DNA from: Candidatus Omnitrophota bacterium | Lineage (GTDB): Bacteria; Ratteibacteria; UBA8468; B48-G9; JAFGKM01 | Direction of reading: 5' to 3' | Length of the DNA stretch: 64,000 nt | Assembly: GCA_016928555.1 (NCBI GenBank) | Contig: JAFGKM010000005.1 | Location: 9,758-73,757 of the forward strand | Shown here: positions 4,297-54,576 of the stretch, piece by piece | Layout of the letters: each line of letters begins with the position of its first letter | Numbering within the stretch: position 1 is the first letter of the stretch | The notes under the pieces: generated by a model | What the model was told of the DNA's origin: nothing | The model's database searches: none | Seen by the model: the letters and a program-made list of their open reading frames with translations, nothing else | Translations under genes and position numbers: made by a program

Positions 4297-5445
4297 TTAA
4301 GCGGAGAGCTTTCTGAGGAGTTTATCTTTTTCAAGAGGAGAAATCCTCATTCTCCTTACGATTTCCCTGAAAAAAACAATGCTGGCATCGTATGTTTTCC
4401 TGTCAACAGGGTAGGGCGTTCCGTCTTTCCCGCCGTGGGCGAAGGAATATCTCGCAGGGTCTTTGTAAGAAGGCTCCGCGCCGTAAATCACTTCAGATAC
4501 AAGGCTGAGCGCCCGCATTGTTTTCGGCCCGACGCCTTTTATTGCAAGGAGGTTTTCATAGTTTGAGGGTTTTCTCTGGTAGACGGTCCAGAGGATTTTT
4601 TCAAGATATTTGTTGTAAGAAAAGTTTTCATCCATGACAGGATGTGTTTTGAACTCTGTATTCTTGAGTTCCAGAAAGATGGTTTCGTCTTCACCGTGTT
4701 TTAATGCAGCCATCCTTGATAATTCACCGGAATGTTTCCTGAGTATGCGCATGTCGCTCATAAGTCCCGTATATGACGTATTGACAAGCTCGGTTGACAT
4801 CTGCCTTGTTCCCTCGCTTTCCTTCGCGGTAAGGTTCAGGCATCTGTTCCTCGCCTGACTGGCTATCCCCGAATGGGGCTCGCATACCATATCTTTAACA
4901 TTATTTGAAAACCAGTGGTATCTTCTTGCCGTGCTGTTTGCGGTGTTCATTCCCTGCTGTACCACCGCCCAGAGCCCGTTCCTGGAAAAGAAAAAAGAGT
5001 GGTGGTATATGTTATAGCCATCCTGGATTAACGAGGTGTCAACCTTGGCGACCATCTTGGAGTTGTATACAAGGCTTTCTACGCTGCCTTCTCTGAAGGA
5101 AATCCTGTTTCCCCATTGCGTTATCTGTTCGGGCGTTTTGAGAGACGTTTTTCCCTTGCCTCCGCATATGAAAATTCCGAGCTGTTTCTCCATGCCTCTG
5201 ATGGATTCCTTGAGTGAAGCGGTCAGTATGGTAGTTAACCCTGAGGCGTTCCAGTCAAAAGCGAGGACCGTGCCAAGGGACTGGAACCATACAGGGTCGG
5301 AAATCCTTTCTATGAATTCATCGGGCCCGTATTCCGCGACTATCGCCTCAACCATGCTTCTGCCCAGCTTCACCATCCTCTCAAAAAGCCATTTCGGGCA
5401 CTGTCCCGTATCAAGGGTAAAGGTGGCAATCCCTCTGCGTATCAT
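4297..5445 (-). CDS. DUF763-like protein with helix-hairpin-helix motif
   Basis: 382 aa. The N-terminal CPKWLFERMVKLGR and the LLAIKGVGPKTMRAL HhH motif resemble DUF763-family proteins as recalled from memory. Confidence 0.5.
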   Translation of the reverse strand: MIRRGIATFTLDTGQCPKWLFERMVKLGRSMVEAIVAEYGPDEFIERISDPVWFQSLGTVLAFDWNASGLTTILTASLKESIRGMEKQLGIFICGGKGKTSLKTPEQITQWGNRISFREGSVESLVYNSKMVAKVDTSLIQDGYNIYHHSFFFSRNGLWAVVQQGMNTANSTARRYHWFSNNVKDMVCEPHSGIASQARNRCLNLTAKESEGTRQMSTELVNTSYTGLMSDMRILRKHSGELSRMAALKHGEDETIFLELKNTEFKTHPVMDENFSYNKYLEKILWTVYQRKPSNYENLLAIKGVGPKTMRALSLVSEVIYGAEPSYKDPARYSFAHGGKDGTPYPVDRKTYDASIVFFREIVRRMRISPLEKDKLLRKLSA

Positions 5446-47338: not shown

Positions 47339-48742
47339 TTACCTTAATGAAACCAGCCATGCGAGAGGACGCAGGACTGTTCTTACCAGCATGCGCACAG
47401 CAGGCCTTCTGCTGATGTATGATGCGGCAGAGGGGCTGTGTTTGTAATACCACCTGACAAATGCCCTGCCTGCCCTGTTTGTCAGCAGGTGCCTGTCGCG
47501 GAAATCCTGAAGCTTCATTACTTCCGACGCCATCGGTGTGCCGTATGCCGCGGTGGCTATGAAACACCAGCCGTCGCTGCGGGCAAGGTCAACAAATTGC
47601 CCAAAATTGGCGTAGATACTCTGGAAACTGCTGAAATACTGGGACCATACCGCCACAACTTTGTCCCCGCTCACCGCCACCTGAGGGCCATATGCATCCC
47701 CTGTCGTATTGTTTTCCAGCAGTTGGGCCGTTCCCCATGTTGCGCCGCCATCGGTGGAATAGTTGGAGTAAATACTAACGGAACTGCCGTCAGACTGGAG
47801 CCATACCGCCGCAACCTTGTTTCCGTCCATCGCCACCTGGGGGGACTCTGCATCATAGTTAGCAGTTTCCAGCAGTTGAGCCGTTTCCCATGTCGCACCG
47901 CCGTCGGTGGAATAGCGGGCGTGGATATTATTGTAAGTGCCGTCAGACTGTCGCCACACCGCAACAACTTTGTCCCCGCTCATCGCCACCTGGGGGTAAT
48001 ATGCATCATAGTCAGCAGTTTCCAGCAGTTGGGCCGTTTCCCATGTCGCGCCGCCATCGGTGGAATAGTTGGAGTAGATACTAGCATAACTGCCGCTCCG
48101 CTGGTACCACACCGCAACAACTTTGTCCCCGCTCATCGCCACCTGGGGGTCATCTGCATCATAGTCAGCAGTTTCCAGCAGTTGGGCCGTTTCCCATGTC
48201 GCGCCGCCATCGGTGGAGTAGCGGGCATAGATATTATCGTCAGTGCCGTCAGACTGGGGCCACACCGCCACAACTTTGTCCCCGCTTATCGCCACCTGGG
48301 GGTAATCTGCATTATAGTCAGCAGTTTCAAGCAGTTGGGCCGTTTCCCATGTCGCGCCGCCGTCGGTGGAGCAGTTGGAATAGATACTATTGTAAGTGCC
48401 GTCCCTCTGGAGCCATACCGCCACAACTTTGTCCCCGCTTATCGCCACCTGAGGGGAATATGCATCATAGTTAGCAGTTTCCAGCATTTGGGCCGTTTCC
48501 CATGTCGCACCGCCGTCGGTGGAGCAGCTGGAATAGATATTCAAGTAACTGCCATCATACTGTTGCCACACCGCCACAACCTTGTCCCCGCTCATCGCCA
48601 CCTGAGGGTCATAGGCCTCATATTCAGAAGTTTCCAGCAGTTGCGGAGCAGTATTCCAGATAAGTTCCGGAGCCCCTTCAAGAGTAGTAGATACAAACAT
48701 ACCGATAAACAATGTAAAACACACCATAAAGATTCTTTTCAT
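47339..48742 (-). CDS. secreted BNR/Asp-box repeat (sialidase-like beta-propeller) protein with conserved CFIATAAYG C-terminal domain
   Basis: Signal peptide and seven tandem 47-aa repeats, each with an Asp-box STDGGATW. The C-terminal 75 aa are almost identical to the C-terminus of the 49757..52162 gene. Confidence 0.75.
   Translation of the reverse strand: MKRIFMVCFTLFIGMFVSTTLEGAPELIWNTAPQLLETSEYEAYDPQVAMSGDKVVAVWQQYDGSYLNIYSSCSTDGGATWETAQMLETANYDAYSPQVAISGDKVVAVWLQRDGTYNSIYSNCSTDGGATWETAQLLETADYNADYPQVAISGDKVVAVWPQSDGTDDNIYARYSTDGGATWETAQLLETADYDADDPQVAMSGDKVVAVWYQRSGSYASIYSNYSTDGGATWETAQLLETADYDAYYPQVAMSGDKVVAVWRQSDGTYNNIHARYSTDGGATWETAQLLETANYDAESPQVAMDGNKVAAVWLQSDGSSVSIYSNYSTDGGATWGTAQLLENNTTGDAYGPQVAVSGDKVVAVWSQYFSSFQSIYANFGQFVDLARSDGWCFIATAAYGTPMASEVMKLQDFRDRHLLTNRAGRAFVRWYYKHSPSAASYISRRPAVRMLVRTVLRPLAWLVSLR
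47590..48655. repeat. seven tandem ~141-bp coding repeats (high nucleotide identity)
   Basis: Near-identical 141-nt units are visible directly in the sequence (e.g. ...caccgccacaactttgtccccgct.atcgccacctgggggt.atctgcat.atagtcagcagtttc.agcagttgggccgtttcccatgtcgc.ccgcc.tcggtgga...). Confidence 0.8.
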
Positions 48743-49099: not shown

Positions 49100-49129
49100 G
49101 GACTTCACCTTTACATTCCAATTTGTGTA

Positions 49130-49411
49130 TTATCGGTATGCTTCTTTTCTGTGCCTGACCCGAAAAATTCTTATCTCTCTTGCTTTATCCTTAATTTCAT
49201 AAATGATGCGATAATCCCCGACTTTGAGCCTGTAATCGTTTTTGGAGCCAACTATTTTTTTGGAATGCAATGGCCTGGGATTTGTTTTCAGGTTATTAAT
49301 AGAAGGAAGAAGTTTTTGAAATAAAACGGTTGGTAATTTTTTCAAATCTCTTTCAGCATGTTTTTCAATAAGAATTTCATACACTTTTGTAGTCCTGTAA
49401 AAAATTGTCAA
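49130..49411 (-). CDS. ParE/RelE-family toxin
   Basis: YRLKVGDYRIIYEIKDKAREIRIFRVRHRKEAY C-terminal signature. A possible GTG start at 49384 would remove the overlap with the antitoxin. Confidence 0.8.
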   Translation of the reverse strand: MTIFYRTTKVYEILIEKHAERDLKKLPTVLFQKLLPSINNLKTNPRPLHSKKIVGSKNDYRLKVGDYRIIYEIKDKAREIRIFRVRHRKEAYR

Positions 49412-49583
49412 ATTTTCTAAATTTCATGGATGTTTTACGCATTGCCTTCAATGTCTTAAGGTCTGCAATATCTTCTAGTCTTTCCAGTATTTCTTCATAT
49501 GTGTCCATTGACAAAATTACTCCAACAGGTTTTCCGTTCTTAACTATAATCTCTTTCGGTTTTTCCAGAAGTGTATTATCCAC
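49377..49583 (-). CDS. Phd/YefM-like antitoxin (GTG start)
   Basis: 68 aa. A GGGGAGG Shine-Dalgarno sits 6 nt before GTG 49583. It lies upstream of and overlaps the ParE-like toxin. Confidence 0.6.
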   Translation of the reverse strand: MDNTLLEKPKEIIVKNGKPVGVILSMDTYEEILERLEDIADLKTLKAMRKTSMKFRKFDNFLQDYKSV

Positions 49584-49649
49584 GTTTTCCTCCCCATTTT
49601 ATATGTTACTATTTTACCATAGAATTCAGATAAGAGAAACAGCAACAAA

Positions 49650-49688
49650 AGAGGTTCGAATAGTGTTACCCACCCTGGGATTTTTCTC
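49650..49688. repeat. hybrid junction element: element-type left half plus tRNA-His-3'-type right half (AGAGGTTCGAATAGTGTTACCCACCCTGGGATTTTTCTC)
   Basis: The left half matches copies at 49069 and 53114. The right half matches the tRNA-His 3' end and downstream flank (47246..47275). Identity continues about 150 nt through the terminator and the paralog C-terminus. Confidence 0.65.
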
Positions 49689-49707
49689 GTTTGCCTCTGA
49701 AATGAGA

Positions 49708-49755
49708 AAGGGGCCGGACCTTTTACAGTCCTGGCCCCTTTTATGTTTTTTAGGT
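49708..49755. terminator. bidirectional intrinsic terminator, paralogous to 47293..47333
   Basis: AAGGGGCC...GGCCCCTT stem followed by TTATGTTTTTT; same sequence context as the terminator after tRNA-His. Confidence 0.55.
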
Positions 49756-49756
49756 T

Positions 49757-52162
49757 TTACCGGATCGAAACCAGCCATGCAATGGGACGAAGGACTGTTC
49801 TCACCAGCATGCGCACAGCAGGCCTTCTGCTGATGTACGATGCGGCAGATGGGCTGTGTTTGTAATACCACCTTACGAAAGCCCTGCCTGCTCTGTTTGT
49901 CAGCAGATGCCTGTCGCGGAAGTTGCGCAGTTTGACAACCTCCGAAGCCATCGGCGTTCCGTATGCCGCGGTGGCTATGAAGCAGTTACCGTTGCCGGTT
50001 CCGAAAAACGGGCATGATTTTTTGCCTTCAAACTTGCTTACAAAAGCGTCAGCAAAACCCCCGTTATATGCCGTATCATATGCGCCAGGTGTTACGGGGA
50101 AATCTGTAGAGTATGTCTCTCCAGCGACAAACAGGTTATTCCGGCTGTCCATGGCAATGGCATTAGCATAATCATAATCACCGCCGCCTAGGAAGGTAGA
50201 ATAGAGAAGTTCCGTCAAGTTATTATCAAACTTGCTTATGAAGCCATCAAAAATACCATTGAAGACCGGAGCATAGGCGTCGAGTGTTGTCGGGAAAGAT
50301 TCTGACTCGGTATTTCCCGCCACAAATACATTATCCTGATTGTCTATGGCGACGGCATAACCATTATCTTCATTAATGCCGCCCATGAATGTAGAAGCAA
50401 GAAGTTGTGTCAGGTCATTGTCAAATTTGCCTAAAAAAACATCACTGTGTCCGTTATACACCTCATCATAGGCGCCTGTCGTTGCAGGGAAGTTCTCTGA
50501 AGAAGTCCGTCCTGTTATAAAGACGTTGTCCTGGCTGTCTATGGTTACGGCATAACCAGTATCTTCATTAATGCCGCCCATGAATGTGGAAGCAAGCAGT
50601 TGTGTCAGGTCATTTTGAAACTTGCTTACAAAGGTGTCGCCCCCGCCGTTATATCCTTCATCATAAGCGCCGGTCGTTGCGGGGAAGTTCTCTGAAGAAG
50701 TCATTCCTGTTATAAAGACGTTGTCCTGGCTGTCTATGGCTATAGAATAAGCATAATTCCATTCACTGCCGCCTATGAAGGTTGAGGCAAGCAGTTGTGC
50801 CAGGTTTTTATCGAACTTGCCTACAAAAGCGTTGCTATTGCCGTTAAGTGTTTCAGCATATGCGCCATCCGTTACAGGGAAATCTTCTGACGAGGTAGTC
50901 CCTGCGACAAATACATTATCCATAGTGTCTATCGCAAGGCCGTCTGCACGGTCAAAGTCCTCGCCGCCCAGAAAGGTAGAGACGAGCAGTTCTGACAGAC
51001 TATTATTGAATTTACCTATAAAGGCATCCCAACTGCCGCCGTTATAATTTTCATTATAAGCCTCGTCCGTTGCAGGAAAGTCTTCTGAAGATGTTTGTCC
51101 TGCAAACAGGATATTGTTTTCTTTGTCTATAACCATGAAGTTAATAGTATCGTTGCTATCGCCTCCTATAAAGGTGGAAGCAAGCAGTTGTGTCAGGTCA
51201 TTATTAAACTTGCTTATAAAGACATCATTGGCTCCCCCCTTATACTCTGTCTCGTAGGCACCCTGTGTTGTCGGGAAGTCTTCTGATGCAGTATTCCCTG
51301 CTACAAAGATATTGTCGTTGCTGTCTATGGCGATAGTTGTGGCATAATCAGAATAGCTGCCGCCTATGAAGGTTGAGGCAAGCAAGGGGTCTATCACAAG
51401 CGGCTTTCTCCTGTCATACCTGTTTACGGCAAAGGAATAGGTGTCTTCGGAAATAATCCTATAAGAAGTTTTAATCCCTTTCATGCCTCCCCGTATTTTC
51501 TGGTATGCAAAAGGTTTTGTGAAAGATATATCTCCGAGTTCGGTCTTTACCACCAACTGTCCGTCTTTGTCTACTTCCAGTCCATGTCCTCCCTCAACCT
51601 TTATCCGGATGTCTTTTACTGCTCCGCCCGGCATGACATGAAAAATCTTTTCGGCATTATTGCCCCGTGCACGAAGGGTCAACTCTATGTTCTCGTATAC
51701 CTCTCCGAGGCTGACTGCATTGTAGGATTCAATATTCCTCTGCCACTTTGCCGGGTCATTTCCCTTAAAATAGTTTATCCTTGCCGATGTTTTTTCCCGT
51801 CCTGTTACATCTGCCTGTCCCGCTCCTACAAGATACTCTTTCAATGCTACGCCTATAACTGTCTCTTTCCGTATTCCTGCACGTACTCCTTTTTTCCCGG
51901 TATTCCCCGCCCCTTCGGATACCTTGGGCAGAGAGTAGACTGTTTCTCCCTTATCCGTTACAAAAAGAGTGCCGCCGAATGTCCGCGCGTAATACGCCAC
52001 TTCCCCTGGATACTGTCCGCTGTTCTTGAGAAAGGGGATGCTTGCCAAAGAGAGCTTTAACTTAACCTGCTGTTCTTCAACAGCCCTGTCTGAAACAGCG
52101 GCGAAACTTATGCCCACAAACAGAATCATCAAAATACCGAATATCTTTTTCAATGCCAACAC
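49757..52162 (-). CDS. secreted SBBP-type beta-propeller repeat protein with conserved CFIATAAYG C-terminal domain
   Basis: Signal peptide, an N-terminal domain of about 260 aa, seven repeats of about 52 aa (LLASTFIGGS..D.GYAIAIDSQDNVFVAGNTSSEDFPTT.GAYDE.YNGG.DAFVSKF), then the shared C-terminal 75 aa. Confidence 0.75.
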   Translation of the reverse strand: MLALKKIFGILMILFVGISFAAVSDRAVEEQQVKLKLSLASIPFLKNSGQYPGEVAYYARTFGGTLFVTDKGETVYSLPKVSEGAGNTGKKGVRAGIRKETVIGVALKEYLVGAGQADVTGREKTSARINYFKGNDPAKWQRNIESYNAVSLGEVYENIELTLRARGNNAEKIFHVMPGGAVKDIRIKVEGGHGLEVDKDGQLVVKTELGDISFTKPFAYQKIRGGMKGIKTSYRIISEDTYSFAVNRYDRRKPLVIDPLLASTFIGGSYSDYATTIAIDSNDNIFVAGNTASEDFPTTQGAYETEYKGGANDVFISKFNNDLTQLLASTFIGGDSNDTINFMVIDKENNILFAGQTSSEDFPATDEAYNENYNGGSWDAFIGKFNNSLSELLVSTFLGGEDFDRADGLAIDTMDNVFVAGTTSSEDFPVTDGAYAETLNGNSNAFVGKFDKNLAQLLASTFIGGSEWNYAYSIAIDSQDNVFITGMTSSENFPATTGAYDEGYNGGGDTFVSKFQNDLTQLLASTFMGGINEDTGYAVTIDSQDNVFITGRTSSENFPATTGAYDEVYNGHSDVFLGKFDNDLTQLLASTFMGGINEDNGYAVAIDNQDNVFVAGNTESESFPTTLDAYAPVFNGIFDGFISKFDNNLTELLYSTFLGGGDYDYANAIAMDSRNNLFVAGETYSTDFPVTPGAYDTAYNGGFADAFVSKFEGKKSCPFFGTGNGNCFIATAAYGTPMASEVVKLRNFRDRHLLTNRAGRAFVRWYYKHSPSAASYISRRPAVRMLVRTVLRPIAWLVSIR

Positions 52163-52315
52163 TCCTTTCGGGTTTTTACCCGTTGTTTAAGCAGGAACAT
52201 AAAGCTGACATTTTTTATATGATGAAACCTTTTTCAGTTGTTGTCAATTATTTTTTATCTTGCAGAAGGAGAGGCAGGCGTTTATTTTCTCAAGAAACTC
52301 TGGATGGGCAATAAC

Positions 52316-52345
52316 AGAGGTTTGAACCTGCTCCCCCAGGGACCC
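52316..52345. repeat. degenerate junction element copy (AGAGGTTTGAACCTGCTCCCCCAGGGACCC)
   Basis: Related to the 49069 and 53114 elements at both ends. Confidence 0.4.
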
Positions 52346-52542
52346 AGTTTCGTAATCTTCTTTGAAGTGAAGGGGATGAGAAGAGAGCGAAGACGTTTGG
52401 CTCCAATGAGTAAGAGGAGCCGTACGAATGGCCGACCCGAGCCGTATTGGGAGGCGAGCGGCGCCGGTCCAACTGAAGATTCTTCCTTATTGAACCGAGA
52501 GCGTGTGCAGTATTTCTGGAAAAGATAATCTAAGATATATTG

Positions 52543-52800
52543 TTATCTGGATTTCCTGTATATATCTTTCCTATGTCCGATTGCTTCTGCAAAGATTTCG
52601 TCTTTTTCTATTGTGTAAATAATCCGATAATCTCCGACCCTGTAGGAAAATTCCCCTGTTAGCTCTCCGGTTAGTTTTTTACCTGCAAAAGGACTATCTT
52701 TCAATATACGCAGTTTTTCTTTAACTCTTATCTGAATTTTTTGTGGCGACTTCTCGTATTTCTTTAGAAATGCATTTGTCAGAAAGAGTTGATATTTCAC
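52543..52800 (-). CDS. ParE/RelE-family toxin
   Basis: FSYRVGDYRIIYTIEKDEIFAEAIGHRKDIY motif; 85 aa. It overlaps the antitoxin by 4 nt. Confidence 0.8.
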   Translation of the reverse strand: MKYQLFLTNAFLKKYEKSPQKIQIRVKEKLRILKDSPFAGKKLTGELTGEFSYRVGDYRIIYTIEKDEIFAEAIGHRKDIYRKSR

Positions 52801-53057
52801 TGATTGCTCCCAAAATATTCTTCGTATGAGCTGTACCTTCTATTTTTTATATCTTCTTTGGCCGCGACTATATCTCTGAGTAATTTCCTGTCAGCCAGTA
52901 TTTCCAGAGTTTCAATTTCTTCCAGACTAACTATTATTGCTTTTGCTTTTGACCTTTGAGTTATAATATATCTTTCTCCCAGTGAAATTTCTTTTATTAT
53001 TTGCGGCAGTTTTTCTCTTGTTGCCACAATTCCTATAACTTTATCCATAAGTAACAC
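52797..53057 (-). CDS. Phd/YefM-family antitoxin
   Basis: 86 aa; KAIIVSLEEIETLEILAD is typical of Phd/YefM. It lies upstream of the toxin. Confidence 0.75.
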   Translation of the reverse strand: MLLMDKVIGIVATREKLPQIIKEISLGERYIITQRSKAKAIIVSLEEIETLEILADRKLLRDIVAAKEDIKNRRYSSYEEYFGSNQ

Positions 53058-53113
53058 CTCCGTTATTAATTGTACGGTTAATCGTACACATTGTCAATGG
53101 ATGGAAAAGCAAA

Positions 53114-53144
53114 AGAGGTTCTAATAGTGTTACCCAGGGGACCC
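53114..53144. repeat. junction element copy (AGAGGTTCTAATAGTGTTACCCAGGGGACCC)
   Basis: One mismatch relative to the 49069 copy. It is preceded by similar ATGGA.AAA..A context. Confidence 0.6.
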
Positions 53145-53161
53145 AGCTGCTTTTCCCGATT

Positions 53162-53614
53162 TTAATGTTGTGGAATGTTCTTGAGAGAATCTGCATCCGC
53201 TTTGTCTTTCAATCTTCCTGTAGATTCTTTATTTTTTATCAGGTTTTCCTTGGAAAGAAAAGGTATCTCCAGATCTTCAAGCAGGATTATCTGTTTTGTT
53301 TCATAAGCAGTGTTAAAGTCAACGCCGTCAATATGGGTAATAATGTCTATTCTGCGCGGCACAACGCCTATCTGGAATACTATCTCTTTTTCCGCAAAGG
53401 TCTTTTCATCGATATCTTTCAGGTATGTACCGAAGTCAATAAGAGATTTATAGACTTTTTTTGAATTTTCAGCGCTTGCTTCAACCCATATGTCGAAGTC
53501 TCCTGTCGCCCTCGGATATCCATGGGCGGCCATTGCATAGGCTCCGACCACAAGAAATTTAACCCTGTTTTTTAAGAAGATTTGTAATATGTCTTTGTAG
53601 TCTTCGTTTAACAT
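53162..53614 (-). CDS. nucleotidyltransferase-fold protein (minimal NTase-like, hGG.A...HG..R.T.D.D motif)
   Basis: FLVVGAYAMAAHGYPRATGDFDIWV. 150 aa. It overlaps the upstream small ORF. Confidence 0.5.
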   Translation of the reverse strand: MLNEDYKDILQIFLKNRVKFLVVGAYAMAAHGYPRATGDFDIWVEASAENSKKVYKSLIDFGTYLKDIDEKTFAEKEIVFQIGVVPRRIDIITHIDGVDFNTAYETKQIILLEDLEIPFLSKENLIKNKESTGRLKDKADADSLKNIPQH

Positions 53615-53756
53615 AGTATGAATCCCTGATTGACCAGAGTTCTTCCGTCAACGGCCACATGAAGGATATGCATTCCAAGGGAGATGCATCTGTATAGGAG
53701 TCATTCTCTTTAGACATTTTCTTAAGTCTTGTCTTAGTTTTCATTACTGTTTTCAT
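53559..53756 (-). CDS. small hypothetical protein (65 aa), apparently leaderless, co-transcribed with the NTase-fold gene
   Basis: ATG 53756 lies 6 nt downstream of an extended -10 TGcTATAAT (53763..53771, minus strand). The ORF overlaps the NTase-fold gene start by 55 nt in another frame. Confidence 0.35.
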   Translation of the reverse strand: MKTVMKTKTRLKKMSKENDSYTDASPLECISFMWPLTEELWSIRDSYYVKRRLQRHITNLLKKQG

Positions 53757-53762
53757 AAATAT

Positions 53763-53771
53763 ATTATAGCA
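53763..53771 (-). promoter_or_regulatory. extended -10 TGcTATAAT driving a leaderless small ORF
   Basis: Minus-strand reading ...tgcTATAATatatttATGaaaaca... Confidence 0.4.
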
Positions 53772-53841
53772 TAAATGACAGGGAAATAGAAGCAAAAATG
53801 GAGGGTTCAGGATTTGAGACTAAATATCCCAAAGGCATTGC

Positions 53842-54048
53842 TTATCTTCTATATTCCTGTAAAAAGTCTTCTAATTTTCTGAACTTTAGAGAATTTTGTC
53901 TCATTGCTTTTAACATTTTCAGGTCTTCAATGTCTTTCAACCTCTCAAGGATTTCTTCATATGTTTCTATAGACAAAATTACTCCAACAGATTTTCCGTT
54001 TTTAACTATAAGCTCTTTTGGCATATACATAAGTGCATTTTCCGTCAT
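53842..54048 (-). CDS. orphan Phd/YefM-like antitoxin, paralog of 49377..49583
   Basis: About 80% nucleotide identity to the 49377..49583 antitoxin over the conserved core. It is followed not by a ParE toxin but by the small-ORF/NTase pair. Start taken at ATG 54048. Confidence 0.5.
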   Translation of the reverse strand: MTENALMYMPKELIVKNGKSVGVILSIETYEEILERLKDIEDLKMLKAMRQNSLKFRKLEDFLQEYRR

Positions 54049-54576
54049 TTCCTTTACTGATTTTTTTGATGTTTTACTATAGATGCAGAATTCAGACAAT
54101 GAAAAGGGTCAAAATCTTTATCCTTAGCTGCTCGTTTTTTCCCTCCTGCGCGGCTGTTTTAAAAACCGGTAATAAAAATTCTGTAGTGAGGAAAGTTACG
54201 CGACAATTTCAGCGCGGAGTCCGCCAACGCTTTAGTGGAGGAAATGGCCGACCCGATGCGTTTCGAAAGCCGAGACGGCGCCGAATCCCCCTATGGAATC
54301 AGGTCTACCTGAAAGCGTTGCTGCACAAGGGTTTGCAGTGATATAAGTATTTGGAATGATACTACCAGACCTCATTCTTACTGCCGATTTTATCTGCGGG
54401 AATTAGAGAATTTGACAGGGCAGGGATGCTGTGAAAAAATATATTTTAACTTTACTTGTGTGGATAACTGGAATAAATAGACGAAAGGATATTGCAACAA
54501 AATTGCTCCTGTTTCCCGTTCATCCAGAAGAAAAACAGTATTCCATCAATTATTTACCGGCCGAGAGGCATAGATC

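Follow-up and report, generated by a model that had tools for sequence, protein, structure and literature searches.

Overlapping genes for a minimal nucleotidyltransferase and a small basic protein in an Omnitrophota genome: a candidate toxin–antitoxin cassette of the MenAT1 kind

The overlapping genes and their promoter

In a 64,000-nucleotide (nt) stretch of contig JAFGKM010000005.1 from a Candidatus Omnitrophota bacterium (called the window below, meaning the whole of the DNA analysed), it was found that a small open reading frame (ORF) of 65 amino acids (aa) runs out of frame into the start of a 150-aa ORF encoding a minimal nucleotidyltransferase (NTase). These two ORFs and the short promoter region before them, from 53162 to 53808, are called the cassette here. 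All of the features discussed lie on the minus strand, where the order from 5′ to 3′ is a 68-aa Phd/YefM-like gene, an 85-nt spacer, the 65-aa ORF, the 150-aa ORF, and a Phd/ParE pair. The parts of the cassette are the following.

53162..53614, minus strand: ORF of the 150-aa minimal NTase, a putative toxin
53559..53756, minus strand: ORF of the 65-aa small basic protein, a putative antitoxin or regulator
53559..53614, minus strand: dual-frame coding stretch, where NTase codons 1–18 also encode, with a register shift of 1 nt, the C-terminal helix of the small protein
53763..53771, minus strand: extended −10 element TGCTATAAT, seen in the sequence 6 nt upstream of the small-ORF ATG
53757..53808, minus strand: promoter region, forming the conserved 5′ end of the cassette, as delimited by alignment of the window with the related loci L001, L002, and L006

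Is the 65-aa ORF a real gene? A close set of about 75 loci was taken from species-representative genomes, with NTases 62–88% identical to the window protein. In these loci the NTase is preceded by an ORF that stands in the same frame relation to it as in the window and stops 47 or 53 nt past the NTase start, and the consensus of the encoded small proteins is MKVNRNKxxLKKMSKxDDSFVxASPxERISFMWELTAELWSLxGxxYVERRLQRNVTNLIKQ. In the non-overlapping part of the small ORF, the entropy of the three codon positions is 0.99, 0.68, and 1.48, and the third positions of the codons for the invariant core residues W, E, L, T, W, and S vary freely. Such variation, rich in third positions around an invariant core, indicates purifying selection on a protein. 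A distant set consists of 80 metagenomic loci (median GC content 63%), whose NTases share 46–61% identity with one representative; the representative, in turn, shares about 40% with the window NTase. Sixty-nine of them have enough upstream sequence for a search with a hidden Markov model of the small protein. The model matched in the frame that corresponds to the small ORF in 66 loci, in the NTase frame in none, and in the third frame in one. The motif of this wider set is D..FW...P.ERL.A.W.L..E.W.F.G...EPRLQR.V.RV.RR. The original prediction, made from the letters of the window, had allowed that the small ORF might turn out to lack conservation and a coding signal in homologous loci. The reverse proved true: the 65-aa ORF is a real gene, and its predicted linkage with the NTase holds in the approximately 75 close loci as well as in 66 of the 69 distant ones. 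The conserved pair resembles a toxin–antitoxin module.

The small-protein profile finds 670 called proteins, all of them annotated as ‘hypothetical’ and none with a Pfam domain, while the close NTase family comprises 4264 homologues (more than 4200 clusters) with 62–97% identity. Thus, gene callers usually miss the small gene.

The overlap of the two ORFs in the window measures 56 nt if the stop codon is counted and 53 nt if not, and the small-ORF frame is set 1 nt ahead of the NTase frame. The overlap had been correctly predicted to be out of frame, though its length had been put at 55 nt. In 70 of 71 loci the small ORF terminates at 47 or 53 nt from the start of the NTase gene, and in the approximately 75 related loci the overlap is 47–53 nt long. 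At the synonymous third positions of conserved NTase codons, the normalised entropy is 0.31 inside the overlap versus 0.87 outside, and the step falls at NTase codons 17–18, which is where the small ORF stops. Several NTase codons are fixed inside the overlap: N3 is always AAC, E4 is always GAA, and Y6 is always TAC. The alternative codons would give TGA, GGA, or TAA, namely a stop or Gly, in the small-ORF frame. Moreover, the codons of the conserved D-[FY]-[KR]-D at the NTase N-terminus, read in the second frame, give the RLQR element of the small protein. The overlap codes in two frames. The alignments suggest that this two-frame overlap is old, as it is kept among NTases only about 35–45% identical to the window protein.

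Since rare fused ORFs exist, programmed +1 frameshifting that yields a fusion protein was considered, and it was rejected as the normal mode. A conserved ATG of its own starts the NTase, and in 47 of 71 loci a Shine-Dalgarno-like site for this start is present within the small ORF. In addition, ORFs fusing the two proteins are rare and are joined at differing positions. The RNA of the small ORF and the overlap folds no better than shuffled sequence (z = 0.54), and no Rfam match at E ≤ 1 was found within 52400–54400. There is thus no evidence for a frameshift-stimulating structure or a riboswitch.

The start of the small ORF is unusual as well. Upstream of the ATG at 53756, the extended −10 element TGCTATAAT at 53771–53763 is followed by the 6-nt spacer ATATTT, exactly as the original prediction had placed it. 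In 59 of 70 close loci, a TATAAT hexamer (with one mismatch at most) lies 3–12 nt before the small-ORF ATG, versus 8% of control ATGs. The commonest spacing is again 6 nt, and 50 of the 59 have the TGn extension (TGnTATAAT). A Shine-Dalgarno-like tetramer precedes the small ORF in only 3 of 71 loci. Since the −10 element is so near the ATG and a Shine-Dalgarno sequence is lacking, the mRNA is probably leaderless, as had been proposed for the 65-aa ORF. Of the distant GC-rich loci, 25 of 67 have a −10-like hexamer 4–10 nt upstream of an open start in the frame of the small ORF; the two remaining frames give 1 and 0 of 67. The geometry of the promoter is kept across phyla. No intrinsic terminator was detected.

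The nucleotidyltransferase and its relatives

The 150-aa protein has the minimal NTase motif that had been read from its sequence (GAYAMAAHGYPRATGDFDIW). Of the general pattern hG[GS]-x9-13-Dh[DE]h with a third acidic residue, it has V23-G24-A25 (Ala standing at the [GS] position), 13 residues, D39-F-D41, and D90 in RRIDII, all of which are kept unchanged throughout the family. A Thr (T37) is present two residues before the first catalytic Asp. The residues G24, R35, T37, D39, D41, D90, K129, R134, D137, and D140 are invariant in the family and are predicted to be catalytic or nucleotide-binding.

The NTase profile collects 11,649 clusters (at 50% identity) at E ≤ 1e-3 and 3965 at E ≤ 1e-10. 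A set of 124 distant representatives, 32–63% identical to the window NTase and mostly below 45%, was compared with Pfam: 100 match DUF6036, 67 match DUF2204, 50 match ANT(2''), and 27 match AbiEii (PF08843; best E 5e-11). One close homologue (P0026) has a precomputed match to PF19502, although the window protein itself has none. The original prediction had looked to Pfam profiles for the identity of the 150-aa and 65-aa proteins; these two proteins gave no match, and it is the distant NTases that tie the family to DUF6036 and AbiEii. Since 100 and 27 of the 124 match these models, the window NTase appears to be a divergent branch of the DUF6036/AbiEii clan. DUF6036 (PF19502) and DUF2204 (PF09970) are its nearest sequence families, both of unknown function, and the window subfamily differs from them in lying below the detection of both models (no match at E ≤ 1). 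In PHROGs, the two window proteins have only weak matches to families of unknown function (E 0.006 and 0.06).

Searches of the sequences in the PDB with phmmer and with the family profile gave MenT1 (8AN4) at E 0.02–0.03 and TM1012 at E 0.04. In the HMMER alignment, R35, T37, D39, D41, and K129 pair with R37, T39, D41, D43, and K137 of MenT1 (numbering of the papers). These five residues are not only invariant in the family but also at least 90% conserved across the 124 distant representatives. The C-terminal K129 corresponds to motif IV of MenT1, with a spacing to the following Arg/Asp that is unlike that of MenT1. The AlphaFold2 model of the NTase has a mean predicted local distance difference test (pLDDT) score of 90 and a predicted template modelling (pTM) score of 0.86. 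Its closest structural matches, with their tabulated values, are TM1012 (10.1), MenT1 (9.8), and LnuA (8.6), followed by ANT(2'')-Ia (7.9), MenT3/TglT (6.3), and MenT4 (5.4). When the same model was submitted to Foldseek, MenT1 within the MenAT1 complex ranked third with E 9e-4. Together with the AbiEii matches of 27 distant relatives, these results bear out the supposed kinship with the MenT/AbiEii toxins. TM1012 of Thermotoga maritima (PDB 2EWR, 2FCL, and 4HX0), whose function is unknown, differs in having a His (VEVHDID) where the window family and MenT1 have the Thr.

Could the NTase instead modify antibiotics or other small molecules, as do LnuA and ANT(2''), both of which are among the structural matches, with the small ORF as its regulator or leader peptide? 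This is very improbable. A leader peptide would show no conserved protein, no 50-nt dual-frame overlap, and no fusions with the enzyme. The hosts are uncultured environmental anaerobes and archaea, and the R-x-T-x-D-x-D motif and the C-terminal Lys match MenT1.

The AbiE, MenAT3, and MenAT4 systems (COG5340–DUF1814, type IV/VII) belong to the same Pfam clan, as the PF08843 matches of the distant relatives indicate, and also have the antitoxin gene first. AbiEii, MenT3, and MenT4 have about 290 aa with an extra C-terminal domain, and their antitoxins have about 200 aa with a winged helix-turn-helix. Unlike AbiEi/COG5340, the upstream partner in the window has 65 aa, with neither a helix-turn-helix nor any other Pfam match.

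The small partner and the possible function of the pair

The small protein is predicted to consist of a disordered basic tail (residues 1–25), an acidic helix (26–42) with the core F-x-W-x-L-T-x-E-L-W-S, and a basic helix (47–64) containing RRLQR. The charges of the tail, the central helix, and the C-terminal helix are +6.5, −6.2, and +5.5, respectively. The isoelectric point is 9.9, and that of the NTase is about 5.4; the superfamily medians are 10.1 and 5.35. Only W34 and R55 are nearly invariant across the small-protein superfamily, and there is no conserved Ser/Thr/Tyr column. At the same loci, the small proteins are about 50% and the NTases about 70% identical to the window proteins, so the small protein evolves faster. 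No Pfam or NCBIfam match was found, even with the broad profile, and no helix-turn-helix; neither database has a model for the small partner.

A few rare proteins (P0259, P0321, P0348, P0334, P0301, and P0327) are single polypeptides in which the small-protein helix precedes the NTase in frame, joined to its N-terminus. These have 1–2 members per 90% cluster, and P0301 occurs on five contigs. The join points differ, and P0321 changes frame within the RLQR overlap. The fused ORFs could be either functional fusions or frameshifted decay products. They argue that the small protein and the NTase may interact physically. A decayed locus was also found on a 6.2-kb NCBI contig (P0122), where a 75-aa product combines the small protein in frame with the last approximately 25 residues of the NTase, the catalytic core having been deleted. 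The join appears to lie at a short A-rich microhomology, as read by eye from the window sequence.

NTases 62–77% identical to the window protein occur in Omnitrophota, Nitrospirota, Elusimicrobiota, Planctomycetota, Clostridia, Methanosarcinales, and Heimdallarchaeota, and in the same range also in deltaproteobacterial lineages (Syntrophaceae and Electrothrix). The flanks of the cassette vary from locus to locus and often include other toxin–antitoxin genes (ParE, Zeta, HigB-like, Gp49/HTH, HicA, BrnT, YafQ) or integrases. In the neighbourhoods of the related loci, no third gene is conserved beside the cassette. No NTase relative was found on viral contigs, hence there is no sign of carriage by phages. 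The cassette is autonomous, has a patchy distribution, and is probably horizontally mobile. The GC content of the cassette (53162–53808) is 37.9%, that of the toxin–antitoxin stretch at 49100–54100 is 41.5%, and that of the whole window is 45.9%; the low value for the cassette is consistent with horizontal acquisition.

I lean toward the reading that the cassette is a self-contained toxin–antitoxin unit of the MenAT1 kind, in which the mini-NTase is a toxin that is held in check by the small helical protein. General hallmarks of toxin–antitoxin systems are seen: a compact two-gene operon, its own promoter, patchy distribution, and variable flanks. The comparison is with MenAT1 of Mycobacterium tuberculosis (Rv0078B–Rv0078A; PDB 8AN4, 8AN5, and 8RR5). 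MenA1 has 68 aa, forms two helices in a V shape, lacks a DNA-binding domain, and is encoded upstream of the toxin; its family is tiny, with 21 genes (PMC10435456). MenT1 phosphorylates its own T39 upon binding of MenA1, and the T39A, D41A, and K137A substitutions abolish the reaction (PMC11375011). The window pair resembles MenAT1 in having a small protein without a DNA-binding domain, of two helices according to a model of low confidence, that is encoded upstream of the NTase. It differs in the size of the NTase (150 aa versus 197 aa for MenT1), which has no match to the Pfam family AbiEii/DUF1814, and in the small protein, which is strongly basic and has no detectable similarity to MenA1. 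In the window cassette, the genes overlap out of frame by about 50 nt, and the operon is probably leaderless. Against the 21 genes of the MenA1 family, the window pairing is found throughout a superfamily that counts its clusters in the thousands. The self-phosphorylated Ser or Thr two residues before the catalytic Asp is T39 in MenT1 and S78 in MenT3, and the mechanism is known for both MenAT1 and MenAT3.

The system may work as follows. The extended −10 promoter would start transcription at or next to the ATG of the 65-aa gene and give an mRNA without a leader. The last 16–18 codons of the small gene would be read 1 nt out of register over the start of the NTase gene, and since the overlapping genes share one short mRNA, both proteins would come from the same transcript. 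The NTase is a stripped-down relative of MenT/AbiEii that has all of its catalytic residues intact and probably adds nucleotides to the 3′ end of an RNA. By analogy with MenT, its target may be the acceptor stems of tRNAs, and the result a block of translation. Inferred in this scheme are the binding between the two proteins, the toxicity of the NTase, its substrate, the direction of neutralisation, and the phosphorylation step. The small protein would bind the NTase by its conserved amphipathic helix and keep it inactive. It might cover the active site; or, as with MenA1 and MenT1, it might push Thr37 toward the bound nucleoside triphosphate, so that the NTase phosphorylates and inactivates itself. 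Both could operate.

Several observations weigh against such a toxin–antitoxin unit. The window NTase has no match in Pfam (E ≤ 1), NCBIfam, or PADLOC, and in sequence it is no more than marginally similar to MenT1 (E about 0.02; in hhalign, 31 columns with a probability of 53%). The fold of TM1012 is equally close, and those of LnuA and ANT(2'') nearly so. On the side of the small protein, the AlphaFold2 model is of low confidence (mean pLDDT 68), and a Foldseek search with it gave nothing meaningful. Neither the narrow nor the broad small-protein profile (A4 and A11) matched any chain of the PDB at E ≤ 10; no similarity to MenA1 was seen, though the MenAT1 complex in 8AN5 should include a MenA1 chain. 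That fusions are tolerated also fits an ordinary regulatory or structural subunit. Finally, the charges reverse the usual pattern of an acidic antitoxin and a basic toxin, and this is the main reason for keeping two rival readings in view.

The first is a non-toxic enzyme of two subunits, in which the small basic protein is an obligatory subunit that binds nucleic acids or regulates, recruiting the acidic NTase to its substrate or activating it, and the cassette is a mobile accessory function, for example in RNA repair or modification. I regard this as unlikely, albeit worth keeping in mind. The small protein is indeed basic at both ends and the NTase acidic, in-frame fusions exist, the pairing is nearly universal, and the top structural match is TM1012. 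However, the cassette is spread patchily over phyla and both prokaryotic domains at high identity, and it sits in islands of toxin–antitoxin genes and integrases, not with functionally related genes. The Thr by which MenT1 inactivates itself is conserved. Moreover, at the decayed locus it is the NTase core that is gone and the small gene that remains, and the fusions are rare.

The second has the roles reversed, the small basic protein being the toxin and the NTase an enzymatic or binding antitoxin, as MntA acts on HepT. In the MNT-HEPN (type VII) systems, the NTase is the antitoxin, its partner is a HEPN RNase with the Rx4-6H motif, and MntA neutralises HepT by nucleotidylylation. MntA–HepT resembles the window cassette in combining a minimal NTase with a small partner in a two-gene unit. 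The charges would fit this arrangement, minimal NTases do serve as antitoxins there, and toxin-first orders are known (higBA and hicAB). Nevertheless, I think it improbable. No HEPN match was found in the small protein or in the neighbouring genes, nor any other toxin signature in the small protein, and its superfamily has no conserved Ser/Thr/Tyr acceptor residue for nucleotidylylation. The small protein, not the NTase, evolves faster, and by the PDB search the NTase is structurally nearer to MenT1 than to any MntA-type protein. In P0122 the small gene is retained without the NTase core, a state in which a toxic small protein should kill its host.

Systems that pair an NTase toxin with a small protein antitoxin are already known in MenAT1. 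What appear to be new are the small-protein family, its pairing with mini-NTases of the DUF6036 type throughout a very large superfamily, the old out-of-frame overlap of about 50 nt, and the conserved leaderless start. In the literature on DUF6036, DUF2204, NetFlax with nucleotidyltransferase, and leaderless NTase toxins, no such pair was found to be described, nor did anything turn up on the two NTase families or on a partner of this sort, subscription journals being mostly outside the coverage. A bolder view, which I put forward only tentatively, is that the pair represents a very large, unrecognised toxin–antitoxin (or enzyme–regulator) superfamily that covers the DUF6036-type mini-NTases together with the new small partner and the old leaderless overlap. 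DUF6036-type NTases are labelled ‘hypothetical’ or ‘nucleotidyltransferase’ in thousands of genomes, and their partner gene is usually uncalled. The pair would give this large family of unknown function a testable role, that of a MenT-like toxin with a new antitoxin. With 150 and 65 aa, it may also offer a minimal system in which to study the control of an NTase active site by a short helix. If it is true that the small protein triggers self-phosphorylation at T37, the mechanism of MenAT1 and MenAT3 would extend to a larger and simpler class in bacteria and archaea. The strongly selected overlap and the leaderless start are both missed by gene callers, which is relevant to the annotation of small proteins.

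Neighbouring genes in the toxin–antitoxin island

The toxin–antitoxin island of the window consists of three independent units: a toxin-less Phd gene, the cassette, and a Phd/ParE pair. The features adjoining the cassette are the following.

53842..54048, minus strand: Phd/YefM-like antitoxin gene without a toxin, adjoining the cassette and outside it, with sub-threshold Pfam and NCBIfam matches
53057–52797 and 52800–52543, minus strand: complete Phd/ParE pair downstream of the cassette (Phd 86 aa, ParE 85 aa)

The 68-aa product of the Phd-like gene matches PhdYeFM_antitox (PF02604) with E 2.2e-6 and 27.8 bits against a gathering score of 29.8, and the NCBIfam model TIGR01552 with 20.1 bits against a curated cut-off of 20.8. 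Its paralog at 49377–49583, which is part of a Phd/ParE pair, lies above both cut-offs (32.9 bits for PhdYeFM_antitox). The two copies are indeed alike in DNA, though at 74% (156 of 210 aligned columns) and not the approximately 80% given in the original prediction; 46 of 68 residues agree in the proteins. The likeness to the 49-kb locus spans from the promoter region to the stop codon of phd and then stops. In this comparison, no remnant of ParE or other toxin was found downstream of the 53842–54048 gene, in agreement with the prediction that its downstream partner is not ParE.

Does the Phd-like gene belong to the cassette? It had been proposed that the small ORF and the NTase are cargo swapped onto a reused Phd scaffold, making a module of three genes. 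The Phd-like gene does lie without a ParE partner on the same strand, 85 nt upstream, and loci L166–L168 likewise have a toxin-less antitoxin (Unstab_antitox) directly upstream of the cassette. Nevertheless, the proposal is largely refuted. A tblastn search with the orphan Phd gave no match in 85 loci carrying NTase relatives. In the closest relatives of the cassette, L001–L006, whose NTases are 87–88% identical, an rve transposase or unrelated DNA lies upstream, and no similarity to the window is seen until about 52 nt ahead of the small-ORF ATG; upstream neighbours vary from locus to locus in general. In addition, the Phd-like gene has its own promoter-like site at 54105–54076, apart from that of the cassette. 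Since it is absent from the 85 loci, since the similarity of the cassettes ends about 52 nt upstream and that of the two Phd loci at the phd stop codon, and since the promoters are separate, the Phd-like gene is best read as a toxin-less duplicate of the 49-kb Phd antitoxin that lies beside the cassette by chance.

The Phd/ParE pair downstream of the cassette has a near-consensus promoter, TTGACA-17-TACAAT, at 53097–53069. The same pair follows the cassette in L001–L003 and L005 with 83–86% protein identity, and its start is present at the end of the contig in L004. It seems that in the lineage of the window the cassette and this pair move together.

In the Omnitrophota-like loci L166 and L167 (at about 4521–4739) and L168 (at 1298–1516), the gene directly upstream of the cassette is a toxin-less Unstab_antitox gene (PF09720). 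This could be a coincidence in islands of toxin–antitoxin genes, or the cassette could tend to land in such operons or displace parts of them.

Two large repeat proteins, encoded at 47339–48742 and 49757–52162 on the minus strand, flank the 49-kb Phd/ParE pair. Both end in a near-identical C-terminal CFI-box-CTERM domain of about 70 aa (NF041770; E 1e-27 and 3e-28). The 467-aa protein has BNR-like ‘STDGGATW’ repeats, and the 801-aa protein has SBBP beta-propeller repeats.

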